A DNA stretch of 64,000 bases from a virus, in the UHGV virus genome UHGV-1550212; one strand, 5' to 3'. Positions 16,857 to 63,217 of this stretch are shown piece by piece. Both the position numbers and the translations under genes were made by a program. Position 1 is the first letter of the stretch, and each line of letters begins with the position of its first letter. Below the pieces are notes generated by a model that did not search any database, had not been told where the DNA came from, and was given only the letters and a program-made list of their open reading frames with translations.

Positions 16857-17876
16857 AGCATGACCGCAATCGTACACAGGCAAAAAGCCTGCGTCAAGCA
16901 TCTCTTGTGTATCTTGTCCACAATCTTTAACATATTGTCGTGTTTTGAAATTATGCCAATGCTTATGAATTGTTGACTTGTCATCTGACAGCTGTGGATT
17001 GAGCGCGAAGTCAGTCGAGTCTACTGGTTCACCTGCAAGATGCTTTCTAATGGCATCAATGACTTCATTGTCATCCATCCATTCGAATATTGTAATGCAA
17101 GTGTAGCCATGCTTGAGAGCAAGCTGAGTTTTGTTGAAGTGATAGTCGAATGCAAGTGGATGATTATGCGTTGATTTGCCCATTGCATATGCAAATCCAT
17201 ATGCTGCATTGTGTGAAAACGTTGGGTTAATTTCAATGAGCAATTTGCAATGTTCATTGCTGTAGTTCAAATCAAATGAAAATCTATGCAATGAAATTTC
17301 ATCATAGCCACAATTGATGCAAAGTTCTTGCTGCAGTTTATCATGCCAATATTTGTTTATCGCTGAAATTGGGCGACCATTTGCATCTCTGCATCTCTTT
17401 GTCATGCAAAACCATGGCACACCATATCGTTGCAGCGTTGTTGCATTGATTTTTTGTTTAGGCCCAAATGCATTGCCATACAAGCGTTGTTTTGTTTCAA
17501 GCATTTTGTTAATGTTGCTTAGAGAGTCACCCCACTTTGCTCGTTTTGTTTCAATTGATTTTGCGACGTTGCCCCATGCATTGCCGTAGCGCTCTAAATT
17601 TGTTTGTCGTTGTTTAGCGACATTGCCCATGCCATTGCCATATTTTGCACGTTTTGATGCAACCATTTTCGCAGCAACATCTTTGCATTGATTGCTATGT
17701 TCTACACCATATTTGTGCAAACATGCTATTTTTCGATTGTACTTTGTTTTAATTGCGCCATGCGATGTTTTACGTGGCGCATATCTCACAAATGGCGTTT
17801 CTGCAAGCAATTTGTCTCTTTCCTCTTCAAGTTCTTTTATGCGAGCTTCAAGAGCTTCTCCTGTCAATTTTTCCAT
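16845..17876 (-). CDS. Homing-endonuclease-like protein, paralog 2 of 5
   Basis: MEKLTGEALEARIKELEEERDKLLAETPFVRYAPRKTSHG; repeats KYGNGMGN / ERYGNAWGN / LYGNAFGP / LQRYGVPW; C-terminal LLIEINPTFSHN ... GYTCITIFEWMDD ... GFLPVYDCG. Confidence 0.6.
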   Translation of the reverse strand: MEKLTGEALEARIKELEEERDKLLAETPFVRYAPRKTSHGAIKTKYNRKIACLHKYGVEHSNQCKDVAAKMVASKRAKYGNGMGNVAKQRQTNLERYGNAWGNVAKSIETKRAKWGDSLSNINKMLETKQRLYGNAFGPKQKINATTLQRYGVPWFCMTKRCRDANGRPISAINKYWHDKLQQELCINCGYDEISLHRFSFDLNYSNEHCKLLIEINPTFSHNAAYGFAYAMGKSTHNHPLAFDYHFNKTQLALKHGYTCITIFEWMDDNEVIDAIRKHLAGEPVDSTDFALNPQLSDDKSTIHKHWHNFKTRQYVKDCGQDTQEMLDAGFLPVYDCGHAVQN

Positions 17877-27963: not shown

Positions 27964-28110
27964 ATTGTACTACAAAAATCCCAAATTTGCACACTTTGAT
28001 AATCAAAAGTGCAAACAAAATTCAAAGTTATATTGTACATCACAAAGTGCAAATTTGCACTTTGTGATGTTAAAATGCCCCATTGTACAATATTTTGTGC
28101 TATTTTGCAC
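27964..28110 (-). promoter_or_regulatory. Three tandem promoter-like motifs, the middle one embedded in a perfect 26-bp palindrome (28041-28066)
   Basis: attgtactacaaaaatcccaaatttgcac (27964-27992), attgtacatcacaaagtgcaaatttgcac (28032-28060), attgtacaatattttgtgctattttgcac (28082-28110); palindrome cacaaagtgcaaatttgcactttgtg. Confidence 0.5.
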
Positions 28111-28701: not shown

Positions 28702-28735
28702 GCAAATATATTTTTGTTTGTATATGTACATAAAA

Positions 28736-28765
28736 GAGCAAGTTCTCAATGTGGAGAACTTGCTC
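28736..28765 (-). terminator. Hairpin (12-bp stem gagcaagttctc / gagaacttgctc, loop aatgtg)
   Basis: Perfect inverted repeat downstream of the tRNA/non-coding region on the minus strand. Confidence 0.4.
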
Positions 28766-29159
28766 AGCTGACCTGTTGCCAGGTGAAAGCGTGGTGCAGC
28801 ACCTTGTGCTGCAATGGCTATGCTGCCATCGCCATAACGGGCTGAGCATTGCCCAGCATCATTACACGACCAGCTGCATTAAGCGTACGCTTTGCTTTGT
28901 TGAAAAATTTGCCAGTTATCTGGTATCTGCACATCTATTCAAGCGACCTACTATGCAATCAAATGCCTGTCGAGCCCAATGTTTGAGCAGTTGTTTGTCA
29001 GATGCTCAGCTGACTGCAGTCTTTCTGAGTGTATCAAGTTCAGCGATTCTGCATCTTTGCTAAATGGCAATAGTTCAGGTGGACTCGCCGAGAATCGAAC
29101 TCGGGTCTTACATAGCGCATCCTTGACTTGGTCCTGTAAACAGGGTTGTCAACATGCAT
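28766..29159 (-). ncRNA. Candidate structured non-coding RNA region downstream of the tRNA cluster, including a tRNA-like 3' half at about 29075-29105
   Basis: About 390 nt with no credible ORF, more GC-rich than surroundings, internal repeats (gctcagctgac twice) and a T-arm/acceptor-like CCGAGTTCGATTCTCGGCGAGTCCACC for which I could not find a pairing 5' acceptor strand. Confidence 0.25.
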
Positions 29160-29230
29160 TGCAATACGACAGGACTCGAACCTGCGACCTCGGATTGGAC
29201 GTCCGCGCTCTTACCGCTGAGCTACGTATT
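29160..29230 (-). tRNA. tRNA-Gly(UCC)-like, atypical (G at position 33, G1:G72 mismatch); possibly a pseudo-tRNA
   Basis: Minus strand GAATACG-TA-GCTCAGCGGTAAGAGC-GCGGA-CGTCCAA-TCCGA-GGTC-GCAGG-TTCGAGT-CCTGT-CGTATTG; canonical D and T arms, anticodon TCC. Confidence 0.5.
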
Positions 29231-29321
29231 CTTATCAATTGACTGCACTGCAATGCAATCAATCGTGCCAATGATATTTGACGCATAATTGCAGTTATGC
29301 GTAACAATTCAAATGTCATTG

Positions 29322-29394
29322 AGCCAACTGCAGGAGTCGAACCTGTAACCTGCTGATTACAAATCAGCTGCTCTGCCAATTGAGCTAAGTTGGC
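29322..29394 (-). tRNA. tRNA-Thr(UGU)
   Basis: GCCAACT-TA-GCTC-AATTGGCA-GAGC-A-GCTGA-TTTGTAA-TCAGC-AGGTT-ACAGG-TTCGACT-CCTGC-AGTTGGC-T; acceptor stem 7/7 paired. Confidence 0.8.
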
Positions 29395-29476
29395 ATAAAG
29401 TCGTTGGGCCATTGCAACCCAAACCTATCATCTTTGTCTAACCAAAGATGCAAGTGTTCTCTTACACCACGACTTG

Positions 29477-29548
29477 TAGCCGAACTTGGAGTCGAACCAA
29501 GCTTTCGAGAATGAAAATCTCGCGTCCTAACCGATAGACGAAACGGCC
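29477..29548 (-). tRNA. tRNA-Glu(UUC)
   Basis: Anticodon arm CGAGA-TTTTCAT-TCTCG, T arm CTTGG-TTCGACT-CCAAG, D loop with GG; acceptor stem has two mismatches at its base, so ends are +/- 2 nt. Confidence 0.65.
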
Positions 29549-29731
29549 AAGAGCAGTTCAAGTCTGCAGCATTGAACTGCGGAAACAATGCCTGTACGGG
29601 CAGCAAATTGTGCAGATACAGCGACATTGCAAAATCACACCGAACCAAGTTTGTGGCTCTTCTGTCTCATAAAAACAAGTAATCATTACACTTGGCACCA
29701 ATGATTCTGATGTAAAAATCGGTGTGTTATG

Positions 29732-29816
29732 CGGAGAGTAAGGGATTCGAACCCCTGGTACGTTGCCGTACAGTGGTTTTCAAGACCACCGCCATCGACC
29801 GCTCGGCCAACTCTCC
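29732..29816 (-). tRNA. tRNA-Ser(UGA), long variable arm
   Basis: GGAGAGT ... GTGGT-CTTGAAA-ACCAC, variable arm TGTACGGCAACGTACCA, T arm AGGGG-TTCGAAT-CCCTT, acceptor 3' ACTCTCC perfectly paired. Confidence 0.85.
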
Positions 29817-30010
29817 ATAAAACATTGCATAAGCATTCTTATCTCTTGATGAGACCAAGTAGCTAATTTGGCAAGTTTGTTATATCTATCGTGACTGTTG
29901 CAGTTTGTTTGTCACTCAATACACAAAACTTTCGAACATTCATTGACAGCACTGCAATATCGCTTTTTAAGCTTAGCCATCAATGTATTTATGCAATGTA
30001 TAACAATTCG

Positions 30011-30092
30011 TAGCCAAACCGGGACTTGAACCCAGACTCCTAATGGAACAACATTTTGAGTGTTGCGTGTCTACCAATTCCACCATTTGGCC
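30011..30092 (-). tRNA. tRNA-Leu(CAA), long variable arm
   Basis: Anticodon arm CAACA-CTCAAAA-TGTTG, variable arm about 13 nt, T arm CTGGG-TTCAAGT-CCCGG, acceptor GGCCAAA/TTTGGCT. Confidence 0.8.
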
Positions 30093-30182
30093 ATTTACAA
30101 ATGCAATCTATTTCACAACTGTTTGCATTTGCATTGTTTAACACTAAAAATATGATTCATCTAATCAAAAACCAGAGAATTG

Positions 30183-30256
30183 TAGGGTAGACAGGACTCA
30201 AACCTGCGACCACGTGGTCCCAAACCACGCATTCTAATCAACTGAACTACTACCCT
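30183..30256 (-). tRNA. tRNA-Pro(UGG)
   Basis: AGGGTAG-TA-GTTC-AGTTGATTA-GAAT-G-CGTGG-TTTGGGA-CCACG-TGGTC-GCAGG-TTTGAGT-CCTGT-CTACCCT-A. Confidence 0.85.
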
Positions 30257-30262
30257 AAGTAG

Positions 30263-30334
30263 TTGAACCGTCTGGACTCGAACCAGAAATGGCTGAACCA
30301 AAATCAGCTGTGTTACCGATTACACCACGATTCA
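30263..30334 (-). tRNA. tRNA-Gln(UUG)
   Basis: TGAATCG-TG-GTGT-AATCGGTA-ACAC-A-GCTGA-TTTTGGT-TCAGC-CATT-TCTGG-TTCGAGT-CCAGA-CGGTTCA-A. Confidence 0.85.
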
Positions 30335-30858: not shown

Positions 30859-31356
30859 TCATTCGATGTTACCAGATAATATCCGAATGGCATCCAATGC
30901 ATTTTCTCGTATTAAGCCAAACTTACCTATAACTTGAACAAAATGTTTGTCATTTTCAAATGTTGAGTCGTCAAGAATGACATATTGTTTGATGTTATGT
31001 TTATCAACAAGCGCAGGCACTGCAGCAAATCTGTCATAAAAGCCCTCAGCATAAATTGATGGCAACAAATAGCCCGGCATATTGCGCTTAAGCCACATTG
31101 TCTTGCAGTCATCAAGAATAGCCCAACTACTTATCAAGCAAATTGCGCCAACATCTGACATCTGACAAATGTATCTCAACCAGCCAACACAACGTTCGTC
31201 AAATAATTGACCAAACTCATCTCTCGACTGCACATCCATGTTTGCACGATGTTTTGACATGTGCAACATATTGAGATTATCTTGGCTATTCAAAACGCCA
31301 TCAATATCCAAGAAAATTACTTTGTCAGGCCAAATCACTTTGCTTGCTGCGTTCAT
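30859..31356 (-). CDS. HAD-superfamily hydrolase (possible 5'-nucleotidase-type phosphatase)
   Basis: HAD motif I VIFLDIDGVLNS and later ILDDS; 165 aa. Confidence 0.45.
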   Translation of the reverse strand: MNAASKVIWPDKVIFLDIDGVLNSQDNLNMLHMSKHRANMDVQSRDEFGQLFDERCVGWLRYICQMSDVGAICLISSWAILDDCKTMWLKRNMPGYLLPSIYAEGFYDRFAAVPALVDKHNIKQYVILDDSTFENDKHFVQVIGKFGLIRENALDAIRILSGNIE

Positions 31357-38385: not shown

Positions 38386-38430
38386 GCAAAAAGAAAGCCG
38401 AACTGAATTTCAGTTCGGCTTTCTTTTTGC
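38386..38430. terminator. Perfect 21-bp-stem hairpin with flanking A/T runs; bidirectional terminator between convergent genes
   Basis: gcaaaaagaaagccgaactga / att / tcagttcggctttctttttgc. Confidence 0.7.
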
Positions 38431-41766: not shown

Positions 41767-44700
41767 TCAATTACATGCTGAATGTCCGCAGTTGGTGCAT
41801 CGAACACAGCCATCAAACTTGACCATGTCACCGCCGCATTCAGGACACTTTGCATACATCTTTGAGCCATCTTGAATATGCAGTTTCAATGCGCGCCCAA
41901 TTGCTTTGCAGAATGTTCCGACAGATGCAAAGCTTTTTGCAGTTTGGTCGACAATTTCGCCAAGGTCAATGCCATTGCGAAGCATCGTTGAGTACAGTCG
42001 AGTAATTGTTTGCTGCTCGTCTGAACCAAGACGTTCTGAGATATTATCATAGTGCTGCAAGAATGACAAATTATCACCAAGCTTGTAGTGCTTCTTATCA
42101 GTCTTTGTGATTGTCGTTTGTTCAATGCCTTGCAACTTGTCGAATTCATCTTTGTCAAGTTCAAATGCAAAGATTTCATAAGGTCGACCGTCATCACAGC
42201 CTACAAGAATACACCACTTGCGCTTATACACTGACACGCAATACACTGCAGCAGGCAATACTGGTTTTCGTTTTGAGCGATGACCAGATTGCAAGATGTG
42301 CGACTTGTCTTTTGACTGCTTGTCATCTTTTACGAGAACACCTGCACGTGAGCCATCTCGATAAATTGTGCAGCCTTTGCAGCCAGATTTCCATGCAGTC
42401 AGATAAATTTCACGAACAAGCTCTTTTGTTGCAGAGTTTGGAATGTTGACCGTTACAGAAATTGACGAGTCAATGTATTTTTGCAATGCACCTTGCAATT
42501 TCACCTTGCCAATCCAGTCAACATCTTCAGTAGTTGCCTTGTAGTATGGTGATTGAATAAGCAATTCATCAATGACTGCTTGCGGAGCATTTGACAACCA
42601 AGCTTTGATGCGAGACATTTCTGCTTCTGACCATTCAATGCCAGTATCTTTGACAAGAGTAAATTTGCCATCGCCAAGCTGCACTCGTTTACAAATCCAC
42701 TGCATCAACGGATAATGAACTACAGCGTATTCAATGAACTTGTCACCAGTAGTCTCATCAATGAAGTTGATGTCGGCCTCATTATCAACTGCAGTTGGCT
42801 TACGACGACGTTTATGTAGTGGCATAAATACGGGCTCAATACCAGACGTTGTCTGAGTCATCAAAGCTGTAGTGCCTGTTGGTGCAATTGTGGTCGTGTT
42901 AATGTTTCGACGGCCAAATTGCTGATAAGTTTTGATGTGCTCATCATCAATCAGTTCAGATAGCATACGCTGGATGAACTTTGATTGCACATCTGTGTCA
43001 TAGTCAAATATTGCAAATGAGCCACGAATCTTTGCCAAGTCAATTGACGCTTCATAAGTCGCCTTTACAAGCCATTGTTGCATAGTGACTGCGAAGTCAA
43101 TTGACTCCTGCGAGCCATAACGCAAGCCAAGCATCGCCATTGCATCGCCAAGCGCAAGGAAGCCCATGCCATATCGACGAGTGTTTGTCAGTTTATCATA
43201 AACTTTGTGCCACAAGTCAAGTTCAGTCTTTTTGATGTCAAAGTCTTCTTTATCTGACCGAACCTTTGCAATGATTCGTTGCACTGCTTCAATTTCAAGC
43301 TGCACAAGGTCATCCATGATGACTGCACAGTCATATGTATCTTTGTAGAATGTCTCAAAGTCAAATGATGCATCAGCAGTCCAAGGATTAAGCACATATG
43401 CAGTCAAATTGCGATGCGACAAAATGCAGCTTGCATATGCAGCGAGAGGCTGTTCACCGCAATTTAGTGTATTGACTACTTGCTTGTCATTGACAGCAAT
43501 AAAGAAATTGTGGAAGTCTTCTACTGTGCCATTGTACACATCTGCTTTGTTCATGTGACGTGTTGCAACGACTTTGACAATTGCATCACCAGTAGTGTCA
43601 ATGTCTGCATATTTGCTGCAGTCACCTAACGCTGCGCAAGCATCACAGCAATATGCTTGTTCACGATTGTCATAAGAAACTTCGAATTCTTTACCACAGC
43701 ACTCGCATTGTTTGATAACTGTGTTTCGTTCTGTTTTTACAAGCTCGTCAGTCTTCAATGCAATTGATAGCTTATCTGCGCTTGGCATATCAATTGCCCA
43801 CAATGAGTCATTTGTTGCAAGGTCAATTGCATTCTTGAAATCGCCATTAGCAAGCCTGAACTCATGATTTGCTGTGCAATTGATGACATGGCCGTCATCA
43901 AGCACAATTTGAATGATTTGCGCATTATGTGCAGTCAATCTGGGTCGACGCATTGTGCGCACAACGAGCTTGCCATTAGAGTCAAGACAATATACTGGAA
44001 TGTCTTCACCACTATCAGCAAGCTCTTTGAATGTCTTCAAACCTGAGCCATCAGCAACAAGTACTTTTGTGTCACCTGTGAAGCATGGATTTGTTGAGCG
44101 CTCTTCATACATTTTGCCATATGCTTTCGAGTTCGACTCTTCCATGATACGGTCCCAGAAGAACACGCCGGGTTCTGCAGATGCCCATACGTTATCAACA
44201 ATTTTGTCAAACAATGCTTTTGCATCTGATGTCTTATGCAGCTCTTGGCCATTAGAGCCACGCCAAACATGCTCAAACTGTTGTTCTGCAAGCACTGCAC
44301 GCATAAATGCATCAGTAAGCTTGATTGAAATGTTTGCGCCTGTGATTTTCGTCAAGTCCTTTTTTGCATCAATGAACTTATCTGCGTCAGGATGCTCAAT
44401 TGACAATGACAACATCAATGCGCCACGCCTGCCATTTTGTGCAACTTCTTTTGTTGATGTTGAAAAACGTTCCATAAATGACACTACACCAGAAGTTGTA
44501 ATAGCACTGTTATGCACTTCTACGTCTTCTGGACGAATGTGCGACAAATCATGACCAACGCCACCACGACGCTTCATCAACTGAACTTGCTCTTCATCTG
44601 TTTTGAAGATGCCGCCATATGAATCTGCGTCATTGCCAATTACATAGCAATTTGACATTGACGTGTAACCGCCAAGACCAATACCAGCCATTGGAGAACC

Positions 44701-44988
44701 ACCAAGCACAAACCGCTTAAAAGGCTCAAGTAAATATGCAAGTCGTTCTTTTGACAATACACGTTTGCCTGTCTGTTCTTCAAATTGTGATTCGATGCGG
44801 TCAAATTCATTGACCCAGCGCTCATGCATATCAGACAATGAGTGTTCATACAAATTGTCTTTGTCATGATGCAAGTATTTTGACATGCATATGTCAGCAG
44901 CCATTGAATCGCCTGTAAATTCATGCGTCAGTGTAGTGTGCACTTCAGCATATTCAGGCGACCCAATTTGAATGGGATGTTTTGTCAT
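41767..44988 (-). CDS. nrdJ: Ribonucleotide reductase, class II-like (NrdJ-type) catalytic chain, interrupted by an intein
   Basis: RRGALMLSLSIEHPDADKFIDAK signature; catalytic motif split as ...ERSTNP | intein | CGEQPLAAY, giving NPCGEQPL after excision; C-terminal zinc ribbon CPECGG ... CVRCTNCGHSAC. Start at MTKHPIQ (ATG 44988). Confidence 0.75.
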   Translation of the reverse strand: MTKHPIQIGSPEYAEVHTTLTHEFTGDSMAADICMSKYLHHDKDNLYEHSLSDMHERWVNEFDRIESQFEEQTGKRVLSKERLAYLLEPFKRFVLGGSPMAGIGLGGYTSMSNCYVIGNDADSYGGIFKTDEEQVQLMKRRGGVGHDLSHIRPEDVEVHNSAITTSGVVSFMERFSTSTKEVAQNGRRGALMLSLSIEHPDADKFIDAKKDLTKITGANISIKLTDAFMRAVLAEQQFEHVWRGSNGQELHKTSDAKALFDKIVDNVWASAEPGVFFWDRIMEESNSKAYGKMYEERSTNPCFTGDTKVLVADGSGLKTFKELADSGEDIPVYCLDSNGKLVVRTMRRPRLTAHNAQIIQIVLDDGHVINCTANHEFRLANGDFKNAIDLATNDSLWAIDMPSADKLSIALKTDELVKTERNTVIKQCECCGKEFEVSYDNREQAYCCDACAALGDCSKYADIDTTGDAIVKVVATRHMNKADVYNGTVEDFHNFFIAVNDKQVVNTLNCGEQPLAAYASCILSHRNLTAYVLNPWTADASFDFETFYKDTYDCAVIMDDLVQLEIEAVQRIIAKVRSDKEDFDIKKTELDLWHKVYDKLTNTRRYGMGFLALGDAMAMLGLRYGSQESIDFAVTMQQWLVKATYEASIDLAKIRGSFAIFDYDTDVQSKFIQRMLSELIDDEHIKTYQQFGRRNINTTTIAPTGTTALMTQTTSGIEPVFMPLHKRRRKPTAVDNEADINFIDETTGDKFIEYAVVHYPLMQWICKRVQLGDGKFTLVKDTGIEWSEAEMSRIKAWLSNAPQAVIDELLIQSPYYKATTEDVDWIGKVKLQGALQKYIDSSISVTVNIPNSATKELVREIYLTAWKSGCKGCTIYRDGSRAGVLVKDDKQSKDKSHILQSGHRSKRKPVLPAAVYCVSVYKRKWCILVGCDDGRPYEIFAFELDKDEFDKLQGIEQTTITKTDKKHYKLGDNLSFLQHYDNISERLGSDEQQTITRLYSTMLRNGIDLGEIVDQTAKSFASVGTFCKAIGRALKLHIQDGSKMYAKCPECGGDMVKFDGCVRCTNCGHSACN
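43462..44085 (-). mobile_element. Intein (208 aa) inserted at the catalytic Cys of the reductase
   Basis: Starts CFTGDTKVLV (block A), block B TANHEF, block F DVYNGTVEDFHNFFIAV, ends ...VVNTLN followed by Cys +1; middle has a small Cys cluster (CECCGK ... CCDAC ... C), no LAGLIDADG motif seen. Confidence 0.65.
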
Positions 44989-45029: not shown

Positions 45030-45057
45030 ATTGTACAACAATGGGCAAAATTTTGCA
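45030..45057 (-). promoter_or_regulatory. Promoter-like motif (sense TGATGCAAAATTTTGCCCATTGTTGTACAAT)
   Basis: About 40 nt upstream of the reductase ATG; its TGCAAA element lies inside the left arm of the hairpin at 45055-45108. Confidence 0.45.
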
Positions 45058-45108
45058 TCAACTCAAAACAGCCAAGCAATTCATTGCTTGGCTGTTTTGA
45101 GTTGATGC
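45055..45108 (-). terminator. Perfect 25-bp-stem hairpin (loop ttca)
   Basis: gcatcaactcaaaacagccaagcaa / ttca / ttgcttggctgttttgagttgatgc. Confidence 0.55.
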
Positions 45109-48455: not shown

Positions 48456-50111
48456 TTATGCAAGTAGTGTTTGCAGCATATAGCAGCCTTTTGCATATGC
48501 AACAATTGCTTTTGCAGGATTGTTCTTGATGTATGCAGGTAACTTGAGCCAAATCAATGACACAAGTACTTTCTGTCGCAGCGTCAAATCAAGTTCATCG
48601 ATATTGTAGCCAATGACTTTTGCTCTGACATCGCCATCAACATAATCGAATTGCTGATATGCTGACTGATTGAATGCATCATAGCCAGACAAGCCATACG
48701 CAAACTTTGCAATGTCATAATCGATGTCACCTGTCATCTTAACGTCACCAAAGTAGCCTCTTGGGTCAATGAACATGCATTTTGATGAATCTGCACTGAA
48801 CATCGTATTTGACGTATTCGGGTCACCATGAATGAATGACCAATTTTCGCATGCATAGTCAATTGAATCTTCTTGCGACAAGAAGAGTCTTAACTTGCTC
48901 ATCAGTTCATCGAATGGCATCAATGCAATGCCATTGAATGATTTGATGCCTGCTACAAGTGACTTGACTTCAGCATATCTTGCAATAGTAGTCTCAATGT
49001 ACTCTTTGCGCATTGCGTCAATCATTTGTTGTCTGCTAACGGGCCAAATCTCGTCATTGTCAAGATTGCTTGCATGCAATTCATTGATTGACTGCTTGAA
49101 TGTCGTCATGCAGCCGCGCGCAATTGCAGCATATCTACGCTCAATATCAACTTTATTGAGGAACTGATGCACAGTCACTCCGTTAATTTTCGACATTTTG
49201 ATGAAGTCTTCACCAGTTTCAAATATCGATGGAATGACTGTTGATTCTGCATTCATCGCATGACGATACCACTCTTGCTCTTTCTGAATGAGTGCCAAGC
49301 CTCGAGCATTTGTAGCAGATTTTGTAACAATATCGCCATCAATGCTAATGCTATTGAAATATCGCACTTCATTGTCACGTGCAGTCTTGACTGCTTCACT
49401 GACAAATACACCACGTTCACCATATGAATGACAACCAGCAATTTCATATCTGTCTACAAATGTAACGTTGGTCATCAAATCAGCAAAATCAGCATTGCTA
49501 TCATTGTGCTGCATATCAATGACATTGTTATGAAATGCTGCAGGTACATAGTATGCACCGACAATGCCACTATGATATGTTGACTCACATATGTGGTCAA
49601 GCATATATGATTCTGCATCTGCATATGAACCTACTTTGTTGTACACTTCTGCAGGAATAAGATGAAGTCTGCAATCAATATCATTTGACGTGCAGCAAGT
49701 TATGCAGCCAGTTTTGAATTTGTCAAGTGGCAATTCAATATCGCCAAGCCACACATCAGACCAATGATAGAATACATTGCATTCACCAATGTTGTTAGCA
49801 ATAAACATTGCTACATCTGCGCATGCTTTTGCTGAGCCATCAGCTTTGTCATGCACAATAGTTGACAATTTGATATCTGGCGCAAATGCTGCAGCATGTT
49901 CATGAATCATTGCTGCATGAGTGTCATTTGCACATGCAACAATGAATTCATCAAACTGTTGAGCATAGGATGTCAAAATCTTTGCGAGCACTGTTTGTTT
50001 GCCTGCATTTACAAGCGTTTTTGGAATGTAGTTATTACCAGTCATTGTTGACATGCGAGTGCCCAAACCACATGCAATGATTGCTAACACATTTGGATAT
50101 TGATGAGACAT
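48456..50111 (-). CDS. Bifunctional sugar-phosphate nucleotidyltransferase + aminoglycoside-phosphotransferase/choline-kinase-fold kinase
   Basis: N-terminal LAIIACGLGTRMSTMTGNNYIPKTLV resembles the LicC/RmlA-type signature; C-terminal kinase motifs FIHGDPNTSN (HGDxxxxN) and FIDPRG. Start at MSHQYPNV (ATG 50111). Confidence 0.65.
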   Translation of the reverse strand: MSHQYPNVLAIIACGLGTRMSTMTGNNYIPKTLVNAGKQTVLAKILTSYAQQFDEFIVACANDTHAAMIHEHAAAFAPDIKLSTIVHDKADGSAKACADVAMFIANNIGECNVFYHWSDVWLGDIELPLDKFKTGCITCCTSNDIDCRLHLIPAEVYNKVGSYADAESYMLDHICESTYHSGIVGAYYVPAAFHNNVIDMQHNDSNADFADLMTNVTFVDRYEIAGCHSYGERGVFVSEAVKTARDNEVRYFNSISIDGDIVTKSATNARGLALIQKEQEWYRHAMNAESTVIPSIFETGEDFIKMSKINGVTVHQFLNKVDIERRYAAIARGCMTTFKQSINELHASNLDNDEIWPVSRQQMIDAMRKEYIETTIARYAEVKSLVAGIKSFNGIALMPFDELMSKLRLFLSQEDSIDYACENWSFIHGDPNTSNTMFSADSSKCMFIDPRGYFGDVKMTGDIDYDIAKFAYGLSGYDAFNQSAYQQFDYVDGDVRAKVIGYNIDELDLTLRQKVLVSLIWLKLPAYIKNNPAKAIVAYAKGCYMLQTLLA

Positions 50112-51155: not shown

Positions 51156-51611
51156 TTAAAATTTGCCATCTGCTACTTGAAAGCATCGATAGCCAAGCTC
51201 TCGCCATTTAGCAACCATAGAATCACGGTCTTCAAGTATAAACGCGATTTGTTTCAGCTCATCTTCAGACAAGGCTTCTACAAGCAATTCAGGCTTGACA
51301 AGTGTATCATGACGTTTATCACCATCTTTTCGCATAAGAATTTGCGGATTGACGATTCTGCCATCTGTATGCTGTGCAAGCCAAATTTCTGTCATTTGTC
51401 TACAGCTTTCACGACGACCTGTGCAGAATATGATTCTGTAGCCAACTTGCTGCAAATCGCAAAGCAAGTCAAGCACAGTCATAATGGGCATGTCTTCATG
51501 ACAGTGTGCATAAAACGCATCCCAATCTTTGTTTGATTGTTGAAGATATTTTAGACGGTCGCCAACTTTTGAAATTGTTCCGTCAATGTCGCATATAATG
51601 ATATTTGCCAT
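51156..51611 (-). CDS. HAD-family polynucleotide 3'-phosphatase-like protein (resembles the phosphatase domain of T4 polynucleotide kinase)
   Basis: IIICDIDGTIS (DxDGT), IIFCTGRRE, and C-terminal ILEDRDSMVAKWRELGYRCFQVADGKF, which matches my recollection of the T4 Pnk tail [27 protein letters not shown]. Confidence 0.6.
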   Translation of the reverse strand: MANIIICDIDGTISKVGDRLKYLQQSNKDWDAFYAHCHEDMPIMTVLDLLCDLQQVGYRIIFCTGRRESCRQMTEIWLAQHTDGRIVNPQILMRKDGDKRHDTLVKPELLVEALSEDELKQIAFILEDRDSMVAKWRELGYRCFQVADGKF

Positions 51612-51630
51612 GATGTGTATGCTTATGAAA

Positions 51631-51654
51631 GGAAGAGCTCAATTGAGCTCTTCC
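51631..51654 (-). terminator. Palindromic hairpin ggaagagctc-aatt-gagctcttcc
   Basis: Perfect 24-bp palindrome 20 nt upstream of the phosphatase start and downstream of the preceding gene. Confidence 0.45.
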
Positions 51655-51685
51655 TGATAGTCAACTTGATAAACCTCTACGAAAA

Positions 51686-52558
51686 TCAAGCCTGACTACT
51701 TTTGTTGATTACGAGATACTTGTATCGTTCTTTGATTGTGATGTTCTTTGATTTTGCAGCCTCGATTTCTTTGCGTTCCTTGGAGGAATAGTTGAACTTG
51801 ATATAGTCGGAGAACAATTCGGGCTTATCTGCTACTTCATTGTTCTTGACTTCTTTTACAAGAGTTTGCTGAAACTCATTGATTGTAGTGAAACCGAGGA
51901 ATGACTGGAACTTGTTAAGCGGAAACAGCTTATCTGTGTTGTCCTCGAATGTCGGGAATTCGTCAGAATACGTAATTTCAATTTGGTCTACAAAATATCT
52001 GAGTTTTTCCCAGGGTTCCTTGCCAATGAGGAGAATGTTCTGATGGTCGAGTTTTTCCTCGAACATTTCCAGGAGACATTCGTATGATTTTACGAGACGA
52101 ACTCCAGGATATGTAATTGATGCAATTGAACGAGGTTTGTGAGTCGTCTTAACTTCTTTATTGTACGTTTCCTCGTCAATGCAATAGATGTATCGCTTAA
52201 CCTTGTCGTATTCTTTAGGAAGATAGTTGTTGTCAAGGAATTGCTTGTCAACTACAATGAAACTGAAAGGATAGAGTTCATTGAATCGTTGGCGAAGCTG
52301 TTCTGTTGCAAGGAAGAAATGCGAGCCATCTTTTGCTGCAAATTCCATATTTGAATTGCATCCTGCATATGCAATGTATCTGTTTCGCTTCCATTTGAGG
52401 AATCGACTTACCAGGTTCTTTTCGAAGATGTCCTTGTATTTGAAGTTAGTGTCCCAGTACTCCTTAACAATTCCATCTTGCATTTTTCTTGACAATTTTG
52501 AATTGTCTACCGGCCTATCAGTAAAAACTGAAGGTTTGTTTGCGTTGTATAATCCCAT
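51686..52558 (-). CDS. Hypothetical protein (290 aa) with codon usage unlike its neighbours
   Basis: ORF whose sense strand is visibly richer in GAG/CTC/CGA/TCC-type codons than flanking AT-rich genes; no motif recognised. Confidence 0.5.
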   Translation of the reverse strand: MGLYNANKPSVFTDRPVDNSKLSRKMQDGIVKEYWDTNFKYKDIFEKNLVSRFLKWKRNRYIAYAGCNSNMEFAAKDGSHFFLATEQLRQRFNELYPFSFIVVDKQFLDNNYLPKEYDKVKRYIYCIDEETYNKEVKTTHKPRSIASITYPGVRLVKSYECLLEMFEEKLDHQNILLIGKEPWEKLRYFVDQIEITYSDEFPTFEDNTDKLFPLNKFQSFLGFTTINEFQQTLVKEVKNNEVADKPELFSDYIKFNYSSKERKEIEAAKSKNITIKERYKYLVINKSSQA

Positions 52559-52653: not shown

Positions 52654-53004
52654 TTACAAATGTGAGAACAACTTATTCGTAACTCGTTCAATTGCAAATT
52701 CAACACCATATTGCAATAACTGTTCAGTGCTAAATGACCTTGCTGCACGTGCAGGTGCTACAATATGCTTTGATTGCGCATACAAAATCCAAGTATCAGT
52801 TGGCCTGTCATAAGTAACTGTCAGTCTGTATGTTTGCAACACAAACTCTTGACTAAAGTGTTCTCTTCGCCAAAACTCTGGTTCTGCAATATGCAAATCA
52901 AACCAAGCAAACTCAAACAAGATTTGTTCGAGTTGACGTTGATGCTTGCGTTCAGCACGATATGTACCGCTGAACAGATACTTGATGATGTTCATCATTT
53001 GCAA
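52654..53004 (-). CDS. Hypothetical protein (116 aa)
   Basis: ORF. Confidence 0.45.
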   Translation of the reverse strand: MQMMNIIKYLFSGTYRAERKHQRQLEQILFEFAWFDLHIAEPEFWRREHFSQEFVLQTYRLTVTYDRPTDTWILYAQSKHIVAPARAARSFSTEQLLQYGVEFAIERVTNKLFSHL

Positions 53005-53711
53005 TCATTATGCTGAGTATGAATTGCGTTGCCCTGTGAATCCAAGCGAATCGCAGTTTGCATTGCGACTTCAGATTGTATTTGTTCTGCCACATAAGAC
53101 TTTCCGATGCCCCCGCCTGGATGTACTGCCCTGAACCTATCAAAATCTGTGCCCAGCTGCTCAGCAACAGACAGCATGATATTATCACCAACGAGCTGAG
53201 ATGCCAGCAGAGAATTCGTCGGAATTCGCGGATTGCGTGAGTCCTCATCAATTGCTGGCAATGACACAAGCAAATCTGCCCAAGCATTCATATCAGTGAC
53301 CTTGCCACCAGCAAAGTTGATGCCAATGATTTGGCAATTCGGTGCAAGCAATTCACGATGTTCACGAAGATATGTCATTGCAGTTGCAAGTTCAGATGTG
53401 TTGCCAGTTTTGCTGAATGCTACAATAACATCGTTGTTTCGAATCATGCCAAAGTCACCATGCATTGCATGCACTGCATCAAAGAATGATGCGTTCAATG
53501 ACAAGCAATAACATGTTGCAGCAAGTTTTTCACAGCAATGCACATTTTTACCAATGCCAGTGAACAACACTTTGCCATCAGACTTCAATGCATTTGCAAT
53601 GATATCTGCTGCAATACCAAGAACGTCATATTGCGCATCTGAAATATTGTTGTGCCATGCTACAAGCGATTCAACTGATGCAGCAATGCCTTTGTGTACA
53701 AGTGTTTTCAT
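52995..53711 (-). CDS. SIS-domain sugar-phosphate isomerase, arabinose-5-phosphate isomerase-like (KdsD/KpsF-type SIS domain without CBS domains)
   Basis: GKVLFTGIGKN, HGDFGMI, VIVAFSKTGNTSEL and FRAVHPGGGIGK line up with the KdsD motifs GKVVVMGMGKSG / HGDLGMV / VIAISNSGES / SHPGGALGRKLL as I recall them. Start at MKTLVHKG (ATG 53711). Confidence 0.75.
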   Translation of the reverse strand: MKTLVHKGIAASVESLVAWHNNISDAQYDVLGIAADIIANALKSDGKVLFTGIGKNVHCCEKLAATCYCLSLNASFFDAVHAMHGDFGMIRNNDVIVAFSKTGNTSELATAMTYLREHRELLAPNCQIIGINFAGGKVTDMNAWADLLVSLPAIDEDSRNPRIPTNSLLASQLVGDNIMLSVAEQLGTDFDRFRAVHPGGGIGKSYVAEQIQSEVAMQTAIRLDSQGNAIHTQHNDCK

Positions 53712-53730: not shown

Positions 53731-54411
53731 TCAAAGAAACTTGAGTTTTGACAGCATTTCAGTGTCTTGTTCAGTGTTGATGCAGAGCTCTTGCATAACA
53801 TCAAGCAATGCAGACCATAATTGCTCATATGATTTGCCGTTGTTCATAACAACAGCGTCAACAAACAGCTCATCTATGTGTTGTTCACTTGAATGACTGA
53901 TGTTTTGCTTGACATCATCATTGACAATTTTAATGAGTTTGAAACCTCTTGAACGCAATGCGGTCGCTTCGTTTGGATATCGACAATCGCCAACACAAAT
54001 AAGTGCTTCATTATGACAATTGTCAAGTCGATACAGCAAACTGTTTACAAAGAAGTCTTCACCATACAGTTTCTTGAGCGCATCTGAAACATCAAGATGC
54101 ACATTGCGAATCGATGAACCTGCAAACTCTACAAAGTGTTTCTGTTTGAATGCATTGTTATGCAAGTCTTGCAAATTGTAGCCCAGTGTACTTGCAATAA
54201 ATGCTTTCAGTGGCTTTGCAAAGCACTCATATGCAAGATTGCAGCCACATGGCCAGTATGGATTTGCTTCAATTTGCTGCAAAGTTGATGTGTAAATGCC
54301 ATCAATTACAGTGAACTTGCATTTAGTCATGACTCGAATCATCGCCCAAGCCAAATCTTTGCCTACGCCTGCATGACCAACAAGCGCAATTTTTGTTATG
54401 TCATCATTCAT
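53731..54411 (-). CDS. Deoxynucleoside monophosphate kinase (T4 gp1-like)
   Basis: P-loop KIALVGHAGVGKDLAWAMI versus T4 gp1 KLIFLSGVKRSGKDTTADFI; C-terminal D-x-R ... E pattern also similar. Confidence 0.65.
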   Translation of the reverse strand: MNDDITKIALVGHAGVGKDLAWAMIRVMTKCKFTVIDGIYTSTLQQIEANPYWPCGCNLAYECFAKPLKAFIASTLGYNLQDLHNNAFKQKHFVEFAGSSIRNVHLDVSDALKKLYGEDFFVNSLLYRLDNCHNEALICVGDCRYPNEATALRSRGFKLIKIVNDDVKQNISHSSEQHIDELFVDAVVMNNGKSYEQLWSALLDVMQELCINTEQDTEMLSKLKFL

Positions 54412-54851: not shown

Positions 54852-54879
54852 CAAGACCAGCTCAATTGAGCTGGTCTTG
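54852..54879 (-). terminator. Hairpin caagaccagctc-aatt-gagctggtcttg
   Basis: 12-bp perfect stem; shares the core agctcaattgagct with the hairpin at 51631-51654. Confidence 0.5.
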
Positions 54880-57232: not shown

Positions 57233-57366
57233 ATGATATGATATATATCAAGTGCAGCAATTGAACAGATTGCAAAAACAATGCTCAGACTGTAAAGTCT
57301 GAGCATTGAACGACTAAATTGTACATCTTCCACAATGATATAGAATCATTGTTAATATTGTATTGA

Positions 57367-57482: not shown

Positions 57483-58565
57483 TCATTGTTGTTTATGCCA
57501 GCCATATGATGCCTGACCAGCATCATACACTTCTACGAAGCCATGGTCGTACATAAAATCTTCATTACGAGTGCCCTTGCCCCCATTAGTGCCAAGAATA
57601 CGGTCTGCGCCATGCATAAGCAGCATATTATTTGTGACATGTTGCTTTGTCAGCATATTGAACCAGTGTTTGCTATATGACAAGCCAAGACCATCAAAGC
57701 CCAGCTTTGTGTACACACCACCGTCAAACTTGCTTAAATCACAATATGATAACACAGATTCAGGGTCATATGTCTTGATAAAGTGCTTAAAGATTCGTTC
57801 AGCACCACCAACAACTTTGGTTGCTGCACAAAGACGTAGCAATTCATATTGATAGCGCTTATTGTATCGTGGACGACCAAATGTCATAAGTTGATGAATG
57901 ACATAACCACCAAGCAACTCAAGTGGATGACCTTCAATCAACGCAAGATTGATAAAATTGCCTGAGCACTTGCCTTGCAAATGATGTTCAATCAAAAATT
58001 GATTTGCAGTATACTTGTCAATTTCAACAACTTTAAGCTTGCGAGCATATACAATCTTTGATTTGTCTACGATTTGATGCTTGATGTGATTGATAACTTT
58101 CTTGGCGTCATCCCAGTCCCACACATGAATGCAATGAAAGCCTGCTGATTTGGCGATGTCTGTTTTCTTTGCATGAATATCACAAGGCAAATGCGAATCT
58201 TTTGCATCATGCATAAACAGATGTTCAAATGAATGTGTGCTGTTATGTGAAAATGCAGGATTGATGTTAATGACAATATTGTCATGTCGAAAATCGAAGA
58301 CTTCATCGCCAATGACAAAGTTGCGCTCAAAATTTATACCGACATGTTTGAGTAACACTTGATGCCACACATCTTTATAGGCTGATTCAAGCTTGCTTAG
58401 CTCATCACAGTTTGCAATGTTTTTGTAACGTTGAATAGCAGCATCAAAGTCAAGATTGACTTCAGCGTAGTCTGCATTTTTATCGTAGTGAAATTTTGAG
58501 CTCATGTGTATAATTTTGTATGAGATTATTGTACAACATGCAAATGCATGTTGCATTTGATGCAA
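57483..58565 (-). CDS. Homing-endonuclease-like protein, paralog 3 of 5 (nuclease-like domain N-terminal, different downstream module)
   Basis: DNIVININPAFSHN ... GFHCIHVWDWDD near the N-terminus; C-terminal GFVEVYDAG shared with the other paralogs; middle region with ANQFLIEHHLQG. Confidence 0.55.
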   Translation of the reverse strand: MHQMQHAFACCTIISYKIIHMSSKFHYDKNADYAEVNLDFDAAIQRYKNIANCDELSKLESAYKDVWHQVLLKHVGINFERNFVIGDEVFDFRHDNIVININPAFSHNSTHSFEHLFMHDAKDSHLPCDIHAKKTDIAKSAGFHCIHVWDWDDAKKVINHIKHQIVDKSKIVYARKLKVVEIDKYTANQFLIEHHLQGKCSGNFINLALIEGHPLELLGGYVIHQLMTFGRPRYNKRYQYELLRLCAATKVVGGAERIFKHFIKTYDPESVLSYCDLSKFDGGVYTKLGFDGLGLSYSKHWFNMLTKQHVTNNMLLMHGADRILGTNGGKGTRNEDFMYDHGFVEVYDAGQASYGWHKQQ

Positions 58566-58612: not shown

Positions 58613-59674
58613 TTACTTTGTATTGCTACGCGTCATTGTTAAATGACCGCAATCATACACATCAACTTCTGTTTTGCCAAGCATGCATGTATGACAATTT
58701 ATTTTGAAATCTGCTGCAGCGTAATCAGGATAGTTTAGTGGAGATTCTTTTGACAAATCAATTTCAATTGTGTCAGTAGTTTTAAGCTGTTCAGTACCTG
58801 CAATGATATCTGCAATAAGATTGATAACTTCTTCTTGTGAATCCCAATCAAACACAGTTATGCAACGATAGCCTACATCAAGTGCAAGTTTTGTTTTATT
58901 GTAATGGTATTGCGCACCAATAACATTGTTGTCTTTTGCTCGACCAGTTAAATATGCAAAACTAACAGTGCAGTTGTGCGTAACTGTTGGACAAATTTCT
59001 ATAAGTAACTTTGCAGGCTCATACTGCAAATCATATGTTTGATTATTGATGTTAAACTCGTACTGTGTATCAATTGCCAACTGTCGTAATAACGCATCAT
59101 GCCACATCATATTACATTTAGAAATTGTTTTGGATGACAATCTGCATTGAGGCAATTGACATGGCCAATCTACGCCGTACATTTGTTGTGTTGTTTGACG
59201 CATTTTGTTAACATCACCAAAATGATTGCCATATCGATGCTCTTTGGTTTTAAGCGACTGCTCAATATTGACATTGCCTACACAACCATAACGTTCAAGT
59301 TTTGTTGCAGCAGTTTTGCTAACATCACCATGTCCATTACCAAATTTGGCGACTTTAGTTGCAAGTATTTTATGACTTGGGCCAAATGCATTGCCATACA
59401 ATTCTTGTTTAGTCGCAAGCATTTTGTCGATATTACAACCAGCGCCATAAGTGTTATGCATAGTTTGCATACGCTGTCGAATAAATTTTGGCACAGATAA
59501 AGGACTTTCTACACCATATTTGCGTAAGCAACTGATTTTGCATGCGTACTTTTGCTTGATGACAGAATGTGCATTTCGACGTCCTATGTAAGTATTTTCT
59601 GATGTAGCAGCAAGCTCTGCATCTCTAAGAACTTCAAGTGCAGCAATTCGTGCTTCAATTTCTTCAGATGTCAT
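58613..59674 (-). CDS. Homing-endonuclease-like protein, paralog 4 of 5
   Basis: MTSEEIEARIAALEVLRDAELAAT; repeats LERYGCVGN / HRYGNHFGD / QMYGVDWP; LLIEICPTVTHN ... GYRCITVFDWD ... VDVYDCGH. Confidence 0.6.
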   Translation of the reverse strand: MTSEEIEARIAALEVLRDAELAATSENTYIGRRNAHSVIKQKYACKISCLRKYGVESPLSVPKFIRQRMQTMHNTYGAGCNIDKMLATKQELYGNAFGPSHKILATKVAKFGNGHGDVSKTAATKLERYGCVGNVNIEQSLKTKEHRYGNHFGDVNKMRQTTQQMYGVDWPCQLPQCRLSSKTISKCNMMWHDALLRQLAIDTQYEFNINNQTYDLQYEPAKLLIEICPTVTHNCTVSFAYLTGRAKDNNVIGAQYHYNKTKLALDVGYRCITVFDWDSQEEVINLIADIIAGTEQLKTTDTIEIDLSKESPLNYPDYAAADFKINCHTCMLGKTEVDVYDCGHLTMTRSNTK

Positions 59675-61825: not shown

Positions 61826-63217
61826 TCATTTTTCAATCTTTTTGAGCAATGCATGACCACAATCATAGACTTCGACGAAGCCTGACGCAATCATTTGTTG
61901 CCTATCAAACCCATTGTCAAGTAGATGTTCCCATGTCTTTGTATTGTGCCAATGCAATTGAATTGATGATTTATCTGTACTAAGCTGCGGATTTTTTGAA
62001 AAGTCTGCACAGTCAATTTTGTCACCGTTAAGATGCTTACGAATGCATTCAATGACAGTGTCGTGGTCATCCCAGTCCCATATTGTTATGCATACATAGC
62101 CATGTTGTAATGCAATTTGTGTCTTGTCAAAATGACTATCATGTCTCTTTGGCCTATTACGCTTTGTGCGCTTAGTAATATATGCATATGAGTATGTTGA
62201 GTTATGCGAAAATGTTGGATTCACTTCAATCAACAATTTGCAATGTTCATTTTCATAATGCAAGTCATATGAAAAGCCAAGTAGCTTAACATCGTCATAA
62301 CTGCAATCAATGTTAAGCTCTTGTTGCAACTTATCATGCCAAAATTGATTTGGCTTAGATATTATGTTGCCTTGACTGTTTATGCAGTTAGAAGTCATAC
62401 ATGACCATGGCACGCCATAACGCTCAATGTTTGTTTTGTTTGCACTTGCTTGAATTTTTGACAATGGGCCCCATGGATGACCATACTTTGCACGCTTGAC
62501 ATCTGCACCACGTTTAGCAACTTCACGATAATCGCCATAACGCTCTTTTCTTGTAGCAAGCATTTTTGCAATATTGCCCGCGCCACGAGAGCCATATCTA
62601 AGCTCTTTAGTCTTTTGAGCTTTGGCGTAATCACCACAAAATGCATTGCCATATCGAGCAATTTTTGTTGCTTTCATTTTTTCAATGTTGCCTGCACCAG
62701 CATTGCCATAACGTTCAAGTTTTGTTTGCTTGGACAATTCAACATTGCCAAATTTGTTGCCATAACGCACTAATTTTGTTTCTTGTGAACGTTGACGTAT
62801 TTCTTGCACTTGTGCACAGTATTCTACGCCATAGCGTTTTAACATTGTTATTCGTTGATTATATGCACGTTTAATAGGTGCATGCGATGTTCGTTTTGGC
62901 CCATATTTAACAAACTCAGTAGATGCAAGTAATTCATCACGCTCACGTTCAAGTTCTGCAATTCGTTGTTGTATATGGACATCATACACAGGCTGCTCAG
63001 AAATGTCATCAATAGCTGTCGTTTCTAATTTAGCAAGTTTGCGTTTAAGAGCTTTTGTTGTTTGCGTGCAGCTCATTTTTATCAATGCATGTGCATGTCT
63101 GCCACAGTCAAGTACAATGTTAGGCTCATTTGCAAGGCGTTCATCACGTTTACATTCTGCAGCATGTATTGCATCAATAAGTTGTCGTCTCTTTACATTA
63201 TATTCGTCTTGTGTCAT
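61826..63217 (-). CDS. Homing-endonuclease-like protein, paralog 5 of 5
   Basis: IAELERERDELLASTEFVKYGPKRTSHAPIK; repeats VRYGNKFGN / ERYGNAGAGN / IARYGNAFCGD / LRYGSRGAGN / ERYGDY / AKYGHPWGP / ERYGVPW; LLIEVNPTFSHN ... GYVCITIWDWDD ... GFVEVYDCGH. Confidence 0.6.
   Translation of the reverse strand: MTQDEYNVKRRQLIDAIHAAECKRDERLANEPNIVLDCGRHAHALIKMSCTQTTKALKRKLAKLETTAIDDISEQPVYDVHIQQRIAELERERDELLASTEFVKYGPKRTSHAPIKRAYNQRITMLKRYGVEYCAQVQEIRQRSQETKLVRYGNKFGNVELSKQTKLERYGNAGAGNIEKMKATKIARYGNAFCGDYAKAQKTKELRYGSRGAGNIAKMLATRKERYGDYREVAKRGADVKRAKYGHPWGPLSKIQASANKTNIERYGVPWSCMTSNCINSQGNIISKPNQFWHDKLQQELNIDCSYDDVKLLGFSYDLHYENEHCKLLIEVNPTFSHNSTYSYAYITKRTKRNRPKRHDSHFDKTQIALQHGYVCITIWDWDDHDTVIECIRKHLNGDKIDCADFSKNPQLSTDKSSIQLHWHNTKTWEHLLDNGFDRQQMIASGFVEVYDCGHALLKKIEK

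Follow-up and report, generated by a model that had tools for sequence, protein, structure and literature searches.

The 64,000-nucleotide stretch of UHGV virus genome UHGV-1550212 analysed here (hereafter the window) carries on its minus strand, at 51156..51611, a gene for an intact phosphatase of the T4 polynucleotide kinase/phosphatase family without the kinase half. The product is a stand-alone HAD phosphatase of 151 amino acids with an ATG start, and its assignment to the PNKP family (HAD_PNKP) rests on the open reading frame (ORF), on Pfam and Protein Data Bank (PDB) matches and on a structural model. It is interpreted here, tentatively and with not quite an even chance, as an autonomous, mobile accessory 3'-phosphatase that would be Mg2+-dependent and belong to the PNKP branch of the HAD (DxDxT) superfamily.

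Identity, active site and predicted fold

The Pfam family HAD_PNKP (PF25109) covers the protein from profile position 2 to 143 of 143, with an E value of 2e-30 and a score of 106.2 bits against a cutoff of 27.6. Two PHROG families annotated as polynucleotide kinase, 415 and 505, match as well (E 1e-33 and 6e-32, respectively), and there are weak matches to Pfam Acid_phosphat_B. In a PDB sequence search, the matches were confined to the C-terminal phosphatase halves of two enzymes, Pnkp1 from Capnocytophaga gingivalis, itself a species of Bacteroidota (4xrp residues 179-312, E 5.9e-15), and T4 Pnkp, also known as PseT (1ltq residues 162-301, E 2.5e-8, with 5uj0 also matched). No Walker A motif is present in the 151-aa protein. 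The first-pass annotation of this DNA, made from the letters alone, had likened the protein to the phosphatase half of T4 polynucleotide kinase only, and these results bear that description out.

All four motifs of the phosphatase active site are preserved, each on the minus strand. Motif I, DIDGT (51576..51590), aligns with D165-V-D167-G-T of T4 Pnkp, is invariant in 32 relatives and supplies the putative nucleophile Asp8, the putative general acid/base Asp10 and Thr12. Motif II, T64-G-R66 (51414..51422), corresponds to S211-G-R213 of the T4 enzyme; in the relatives G65, R66 and R67 are invariant and T64 nearly so. Motif III consists of Lys106 (51294..51296), which is equivalent to T4 Lys258 and invariant in relatives. 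Motif IV, E127-D128-R129 (51225..51233), aligns with T4 D277-D278-R279, with Asp128 as the equivalent of the Mg2+ ligand, and the EDR triplet is invariant in the clade. D8, D10, T64, K106 and D128 are thus aligned with T4 D165, D167, S211, K258 and D278, the set to which Das and Shuman assigned catalysis, with Asp165 the nucleophile, Asp167 the acid/base, the phosphate engaged by Ser211 and Lys258, and Mg2+ by Asp278 (PMC3592404).

An AlphaFold2 model built on the 32 relatives has a pLDDT of 91.3. When it was compared with the PDB using Foldseek, ranks 1-21 were occupied entirely by Pnkp1 and T4 Pnkp chains (4xrp, 4xru, 5uj0, 1ltq, 2ia5 and 1rc8; E 5e-10 to 2.5e-6), with template modelling (TM) scores of 0.80 for 4xrp (Pnkp1) and 0.74 for T4 Pnkp and 25-32% identity in the structural alignments. 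The next family comprises the class B/C nucleotide acid phosphatases (AphA and e(P4)), starting from about 7e-5, with lipin matched as well, and no GmhB-type, KdsC-type or other sugar phosphatase was found among the top 50 matches. It had been left open whether a sugar-phosphate phosphatase would prove the closer relative, and by both sequence and structure the closest proteins are instead Pnkp1 and T4 Pnkp. With these two enzymes (1ltq and 5uj0 for T4 Pnkp, 4xrp for Pnkp1), the 151-aa protein has in common the HAD_PNKP family, the DxDxT, S/T-G-R, K and D-D/E-D motifs and the predicted fold. It differs from them in having no N-terminal P-loop 5'-kinase domain and no RNA ligase or Hen1 nearby, and in a motif IV that reads Glu-Asp instead of Asp-Asp.

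Stand-alone members of the PNKP family

Stand-alone PNKP-type phosphatases are ordinary and very common in phages. A scan of 1.84 billion cluster representatives identified 3569 at E ≤1e-10, and about 143 of the best 150 were 143-200 aa in length. From IMG/VR, 80 loci with HAD_PNKP relatives were fetched, and 72 recognisable viral relatives were classed; some 55 of these are 136-220 aa long and have no Walker A motif, whereas in 16-17 a P-loop kinase is fused at the N terminus. The significance that the earlier annotation attached by implication to the stand-alone state was therefore overstated, since stand-alone members make up the majority of the nearest relatives. Where the neighbours of the stand-alone viral members are informative, they point to RNA repair and never to sugar metabolism, and most members travel alone: the 131 immediate neighbours include two genes matching RNA_ligase, one matching RNA_lig_T4_1, two matching AAA_33 and two matching RlaP.

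A precedent from cultured phages is Pap of P1 and P7 (annotated '3'-phosphatase', 168 aa), which can be compared together with PHROG 415; these are single-domain proteins of about 150-170 aa in the same family and, as here, are encoded by an isolated accessory gene. P7 Pap is 38% identical to the 151-aa protein over 137 residues, although Pap comes from another phage group and another host phylum. The comparison provides a precedent and not a mechanism.

Distribution and strain-level decay of the gene

Close relatives of the phosphatase are 57-68% identical to it and have 39 invariant positions, all of which are kept in the 151-aa protein. These relatives sit in unrelated Bacteroidales phage contigs, amid DNA methylases, helicases and HNH genes, and the contigs share no other gene with the window. 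Conversely, contigs that are syntenic with the window do not preserve the gene. The phosphatase is preceded in the window by a gene for a 290-aa protein with a DHFR/RibD-C fold (51686..52558, minus strand) and followed, after other small genes, by an AfhE-like gene (48456..50111, minus strand). Three syntenic relatives (L095, L097 and L183) keep both of these and have neither the phosphatase nor the isomerase discussed below, and in a fourth (L094) the phosphatase site holds a gap of some 100 bp. The small genes between the DHFR-fold and AfhE-like genes differ in every relative, which marks this as a hypervariable insertion region. Composition gives no sign of recent acquisition, as the GC content of the gene (0.406) and that of its third codon positions (0.336) do not differ from those of its neighbours.

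The gene is, moreover, in decay within the species. A nucleotide alignment of four strains shows that the GGG run at 51521..51523 (minus strand) is GGGG in L099 and L180, which are diverged sister strains sharing the resulting +1 frameshift after about residue 30. A further sequence, P0003, has the same extra G together with a compensating upstream deletion, and residues 22-33 are scrambled. In sister strain L179 (P0002), 18 nt corresponding to 51286..51303 (minus strand) are deleted in frame, removing LVKPEL and with it Lys106, and the same allele carries R66H. The decayed alleles lie at 10001-10457 in L099, 1109-1435 in L180 and 7076-7513 in L179. Beside them, the 290-aa gene, a 224-aa gene located downstream of the phosphatase, the isomerase gene and that for the AfhE-like protein are unbroken in each contig that extends to them; this applies to the isomerase in L099 and L179 and to the AfhE-like gene in L099 and L180. 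Loss-of-function and intact alleles coexist in near-identical phages from different human-gut samples.

The gene is accordingly a mobile and dispensable accessory gene, and the fuller reading, in which it was acquired horizontally, acts autonomously and is not part of an operon-level machine, is close to, but short of, being as probable as its negation. A patchy single-gene distribution with strain-level decay is what is expected of a host-dependent accessory or counter-defence gene. The phosphatase would be useful only under some conditions and hence repeatedly lost.

Proposed activity and the points against it

The data establish that the protein belongs to the PNKP family, with the family's fold and an intact active site, that it stands alone, and that its gene is mobile, dispensable, decaying in some strains and independent of the hairpin upstream; the substrate and biological role are what we infer from its characterised relatives. 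By analogy with the family, Asp8 would attack the phosphate to form an aspartyl-phosphate, and Asp10 would protonate the leaving sugar hydroxyl and then activate water; Thr64 and Lys106 would hold the phosphate, and Asp128 with Glu127 would hold Mg2+. The likeliest substrates would be those of the nearest characterised relatives, namely 3'-nucleotides or the 3'-phosphates at breaks in RNA or DNA, which would be converted to 3'-OH. The enzyme would act with no 5'-kinase or ligase fused to it or encoded beside it, and any sealing would have to be done by enzymes encoded elsewhere or by the host. The gene itself was inserted immediately behind a hairpin that belongs to the preceding gene, and is probably reached by read-through.

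Phage countermeasures to RNA damage have been reviewed by Iyer et al. (PMC7824862), and two other features of the window fit with that theme. Seven transfer RNA (tRNA) genes (Gly, Thr, Glu, Ser, Leu, Pro and Gln), detected with ARAGORN and Rfam, are clustered at 29161-30334 on the minus strand, and directly beside them, at 30859..31356 (minus strand), is a second stand-alone HAD gene, a member of the 'Swiss-army-knife' RNA-repair family HAD_SAK_2 (Pfam E 2.3e-14). The HAD_SAK phosphatases likewise stand alone, and their predicted task is the removal of linear 3'-phosphates during RNA repair in phages, but they form a separate Pfam family (PF18143) that the 151-aa protein does not match.

Several points weigh against an accessory 3'-phosphatase. 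We know of no stand-alone member of the family with a demonstrated substrate, and for this reason the role is extrapolated from fused enzymes at 25-38% identity. Partner genes were sought in the window together with its two 10-kb flanks, amounting to 84 kb of a genome of roughly 175 kb. Pfam sweeps of the 56 window proteins identified no RNA ligase (Rnl or RtcB) and no kinase of the polynucleotide kinase (PNK) type, the sole ligase being an NAD-dependent DNA ligase, and neither a kinase nor a ligase is present among the called genes of the 10-kb flanks, which are structural. A 3'-phosphatase alone cannot make an RNA break ligatable, and it removes the 3'-phosphate that is used by RtcB-type ligases (PMC7824862). 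The other points concern the location of the gene. It lies between an isomerase-like gene and the AfhE-like gene, a placement in a 2.8-kb interval of a genome of about 175 kb that is unlikely to have arisen by chance. Among five syntenic relatives, gain of the isomerase on one side of the 290-aa gene and of the phosphatase on the other is confined to the window lineage. Finally, the sugar-nucleotide pathway to which such genes belong needs a HAD phosphatase, and no other was found for it in the window.

The sugar-nucleotide module around the gene

The isomerase-like gene (52995..53711, minus strand) encodes a SIS-domain sugar-phosphate isomerase resembling arabinose-5-phosphate isomerase; it matches Pfam SIS and PHROG 5670 ('arabinose 5-phosphate isomerase', E 1e-28) and is 28% identical to the isomerase of Acinetobacter phage Maestro. 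The AfhE-like gene encodes a bifunctional nucleoside triphosphate (NTP) transferase and kinase of 551 aa, which matches Pfam NTP_transferase and PHROG 4098 (E 1e-75). It aligns with Maestro AfhE over its full length at 27% identity and is 30% identical to the 'GlmU' of MA9V-1, it has equivalents in RB69-like phages, and an APH kinase domain has been recorded in its relatives. The 290-aa DHFR-fold gene is its conserved partner. Two other genes separate the HAD gene from the isomerase gene on one side and from the AfhE-like gene on the other, and the isomerase, HAD and AfhE-like genes share one strand. In phages HY126, RB69, DLP3 and Maestro, an isomerase, AfhE and AfhF make uridine diphosphate (UDP)-arabinose for arabinosyl-5-hydroxycytosine DNA; AfhE serves both as the kinase for arabinose 5-phosphate and as UDP-arabinose pyrophosphorylase, and AfhF is a small Mg2+-dependent HAD phosphatase (PMC13326640).

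It is possible, though unlikely, that the 151-aa protein is a non-orthologous replacement for AfhF, acting as the sugar-bisphosphate phosphatase of a phage nucleoside diphosphate (NDP)-pentose pathway. The SIS isomerase would convert ribulose 5-phosphate to arabinose 5-phosphate, the kinase domain of the AfhE-like protein would form the 1,5-bisphosphate, the HAD protein would remove the 5-phosphate, and the nucleotidyltransferase domain would produce NDP-arabinose for the glycosylation of DNA or of another acceptor. The phosphatase gene is suggestively placed, on one strand with the other two and at distances of 955 bp (upstream of the AfhE-like gene) and 1.4 kb (downstream of the isomerase gene). 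Neither tblastn nor a hidden Markov model (HMM) of 19 AfhF sequences detected an AfhF homolog in the window, and because the pathway needs a HAD phosphatase and AfhF is absent here, recruitment is a live rival.

The relationship of the protein to AfhF itself can be read both ways. AfhF, the arabinofuranose-1,5-bisphosphate phosphatase also represented by RB69 gp51 and DLP3 gp81, is likewise a small, cap-less, Mg2+-dependent HAD protein and keeps the same genomic company, an isomerase and AfhE. A profile-profile comparison using hhalign aligns the two with 95% probability, but over HAD motifs I-II only; BLASTP similarity is effectively nil (E 4.4), and the AfhF HMM does not match. Relative to AfhF, RB69 gp51 and Maestro gp082, the 151-aa protein is a member of another HAD subfamily with a profile match at the superfamily level, and its structural matches are polynucleotide and nucleotide phosphatases rather than enzymes of the GmhB/KdsC type. 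Its setting differs as well: the gene is not immediately adjacent to the AfhE-like gene, the linkage is not conserved, and no ThyA-like 5-hydroxycytosine synthase or glycosyltransferase was detected in the window (tblastn with the Maestro ThyA homolog and glycosyltransferases, and Pfam, with no Thymidylat_synt match).

A survey of 80 viral loci with AfhE-like genes is similarly divided. In 56 of them a HAD-motif protein is either fused to the AfhE-like one or encoded no more than 1.5 kb away, compared with a background farther away of roughly 4 per 1100 kb. At least five unrelated types are represented (AfhF, 120-135-aa proteins with 'WFIDLDGT', 209-aa proteins with 'DCDGV', 220-247-aa proteins with 'FDFDGT' and N-terminal fusions in giant-virus metagenome-assembled genomes (MAGs)), so that non-orthologous filling of the phosphatase step is common. 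On the other hand, 20 of the 49 AfhE-like loci that are positive for the isomerase, including those most similar to the one described here, have no HAD gene within 10 kb, and a phage-encoded phosphatase is therefore not obligatory.

The history of the locus and the company kept by the family are less favourable. Compared with L183, L095 and L097, the window lineage has gained the SIS isomerase with a 114-aa ORF, and also the phosphatase, and the restriction of both enzymes to this lineage among the five syntenic relatives would suit a joint function. However, relatives keep the AfhE-like gene and its 290-aa partner without any phosphatase, and the broken alleles stand beside an intact isomerase gene (L099 and L179) and an intact AfhE-like gene (L099 and L180). 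Neither an AfhE-like nor an isomerase gene occurs within 10 kb at any of the other 79 viral HAD_PNKP loci, and of the 48 neighbour families found near such loci, the 25 listed include no sugar-related Pfam family. None of the best 120 AfhE-like matches falls on a contig equal in length to one that carries a close relative of the phosphatase. The protein, moreover, retains every invariant residue of a clade that lives in phages without the module.

The suggestion that the phosphatase had been recruited for another role has thus acquired a concrete candidate in the form of a gene embedded in an isomerase/AfhE-like module without AfhF, but the linkage is confined to this lineage, sister strains can dispense with the gene and the close relatives have no module. 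Placement in the sugar-nucleotide module is an uncommon feature, and is more likely circumstantial than functional. More specifically, it is doubtful that a PNKP-type phosphatase was captured together with the isomerase, as a stand-in for AfhF, into an AfhE-like module whose invariant partner is a DHFR-fold protein and not a thymidylate synthase homolog.

A separate observation concerns the AfhE-like family in giant-virus MAGs. In single polypeptides of about 890-905 aa (at loci L034, L041, L044, L045, L047, L049, L066, L069, L078 and L079), the AfhE-like NTP-transferase and kinase is joined to an N-terminal region with a HAD motif, and the precomputed Pfam matches of sequences P0139-P0143 also include a SIS isomerase domain. 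If the proteins at these loci are of the same kind as P0139-P0143, the whole isomerase-kinase-phosphatase-pyrophosphorylase pathway would be a single protein.

Split RNA repair and a nucleotide-pool role as possible alternatives

The first-pass annotation had also raised a split RNA-repair system directed against host anticodon nucleases, with partners elsewhere. In a system of the T4 type, the phosphatase would work with a 5'-kinase and an RNA ligase encoded separately in another part of the genome, and tRNAs cleaved by those nucleases would be resealed. The annotation's statement that no kinase domain or RNA ligase is adjacent is correct, as neither the Pfam sweeps nor phmmer found one; the partners elsewhere that it postulated receive no support from the 84 kb examined, where a PNK kinase, Rnl and RtcB were all sought and not found. 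A phmmer search with three PNK kinase domains matched no gene of the window at E ≤1. A single P-loop kinase is encoded in the vicinity, at 53731..54411 (minus strand); it is a deoxynucleoside monophosphate kinase (Pfam DNMK; PHROG 139, E 5e-28) and not a PNK kinase, as the kinase-domain queries do not match it.

Repair of this kind is the function of the family in T4 and in the Pnkp1-Rnl-Hen1 system, and the best match from a cultured phage is a full Pnkp adjoining an RNA ligase. In jumbo phages, such phosphatases generally accompany ATP-grasp RNA ligases (PMC7824862), and the seven tRNA genes and the HAD_SAK_2 gene would be in keeping with the same function. Among the stand-alone viral members, an RNA ligase, AAA_33 kinase or RlaP gene adjoins a minority, but no separate PNK kinase is encoded within 10 kb of any of the approximately 55 others. 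The close relatives travel as single genes, and loss-of-function alleles are frequent. Taken with the lack of a kinase or ligase in the window and among the called genes of its flanks, this makes a split system improbable. Two candidate partners were also considered and rejected. A conserved ORF of 186-196 aa that immediately precedes the phosphatase in L007 and L008 lacks a Walker A motif and was thereby ruled out as a detached kinase, and a two-gene module with the downstream 224-aa gene was ruled out because the phosphatase is the only gene common to the window and L005-L008.

T4 Pnkp also hydrolyses deoxynucleoside 3'-monophosphates. Nevertheless, it is very improbable that the 151-aa protein is a small-molecule phosphatase that acts on 3'-nucleotides or on another phosphorylated nucleotide or signalling molecule and shapes the pool alongside the deoxynucleoside monophosphate kinase, ribonucleotide reductase and DHFR: the nucleotide-acting AphA and e(P4) follow the PNKP family among the structural matches, Acid_phosphat_B is weakly matched and nucleotide-metabolism genes occur in the same region, but the acid phosphatase matches are much weaker than those to PNKP (E about 1e-4 versus 5e-10) and the relatives show no conserved linkage to nucleotide-metabolism genes.

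The palindrome upstream of the phosphatase

A perfect palindrome, GGAAGAGCTCAATTGAGCTCTTCC, occupies 24 nt (51631-51654), or 26 nt with the flanking A/T (51630..51655), and had been noted as lying immediately upstream of the phosphatase. Its perfection and position stand, with 19 nt between it and the phosphatase ATG; its association with the phosphatase does not, as equivalents are found in relatives without that gene. Transcribed from the minus strand, it forms an 11-bp hairpin with an AAUU loop, 31 nt past the stop codon of the 290-aa gene. The full palindrome GGAAGAGCTCAATTGAGCTCTTCC occurs once in the window and in none of 100 shuffles, the hairpin region has an RNA folding z-score of -5.4, and the sequence is identical in L099, L179 and L180. 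Neither L094 nor L095 has the phosphatase, yet in both a strong hairpin with another sequence is found at the same position after the homologous upstream gene. Because of these positional equivalents, the hairpin is assigned to the upstream gene's 3' end and is read as a terminator-like or RNA-stabilising 3' element of 51686..52558.

The L094 hairpin is followed by UUUUU, whereas that of the window has a tail of only UUUC, which is why a consensus terminator scan did not call it. No Rfam family matches the hairpin, and a scan for promoters of the sigma-70 type gave results at the level of shuffled sequence. Perfect intergenic hairpins are a general feature of this DNA, with at least eight in the window having stems of 13-27 bp; other inverted repeats of this kind are found at gene boundaries at 6652-6709, 45055-45108, 38386-38430, 28037-28070, 54852-54879 and 57279-57308. 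A role as a repeated operator was considered and rejected: the 12-nt core GCTCAATTGAGC recurs once, at 54860-54871 within the hairpin at 54852-54879, and these 2 matches (0.61 expected; 14 of 100 shuffles reach 2) are not significant.

The phage and other features of the window

The genes of the window include those for a Gp23-type capsid protein, a T4-type terminase and clamp loader, topoisomerase II, an intein-bearing ribonucleotide reductase, DHFR and the NAD-dependent DNA ligase, in addition to the seven tRNAs. The nearest relatives of several of them come from gut metagenomes, from Alistipes and from a Chryseobacterium phage. Together, this gene content and these relatives point to a large T4-like phage of Bacteroidota. 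The window is 100% identical to part of an ENA metagenome scaffold (ERZ28666419 ZEEV15-1 scaffold_4, 128,623 bp). A sequence in IMG/VR, UViG_3300045988_149023 (175,564 bp), is about 95% identical to the window, and no near-identical cultured phage was found.

Five paralogous genes of 340-460 aa, all on the minus strand and four of them belonging to Pfam DUF7487, are scattered between the replication and structural genes (3290-4585, 16845-17876, 57483-58556, 58613-59674 and 61826-63217). Their copy number and positions vary across related contigs, and they look like mobile, homing-endonuclease-like genes. The large subunit of ribonucleotide reductase (41767-44988, minus strand) contains an intein (Pfam Intein_splicing), and its homolog in L097 has an HNH domain as well. 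A transfer-messenger RNA ('tmRNA*') with a 31-residue tag, called by ARAGORN beside the tRNA cluster at 28727-29169 on the minus strand, is probably a false call, as no Rfam tmRNA was found there at the gathering threshold.

Implications

What is added here is one more well-documented stand-alone member of the PNKP family, from a gut Bacteroidota phage, in a family that is already abundant in phage and metagenome data. If the sugar-bisphosphate role were true, it would provide the first example of an end-healing phosphatase of nucleic acids put to new use in making NDP-sugars, and a new variant of the chemistry of phage glycosyl hypermodification; it would show the ease with which unrelated HAD enzymes fill the phosphatase step of phage NDP-sugar pathways, and would draw attention to the module of DHFR-fold and AfhE-like genes in Bacteroidota phages. 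For the stand-alone family as a whole, the intact and broken alleles in otherwise near-identical phages constitute a ready-made comparison through which its phenotype may be approached.

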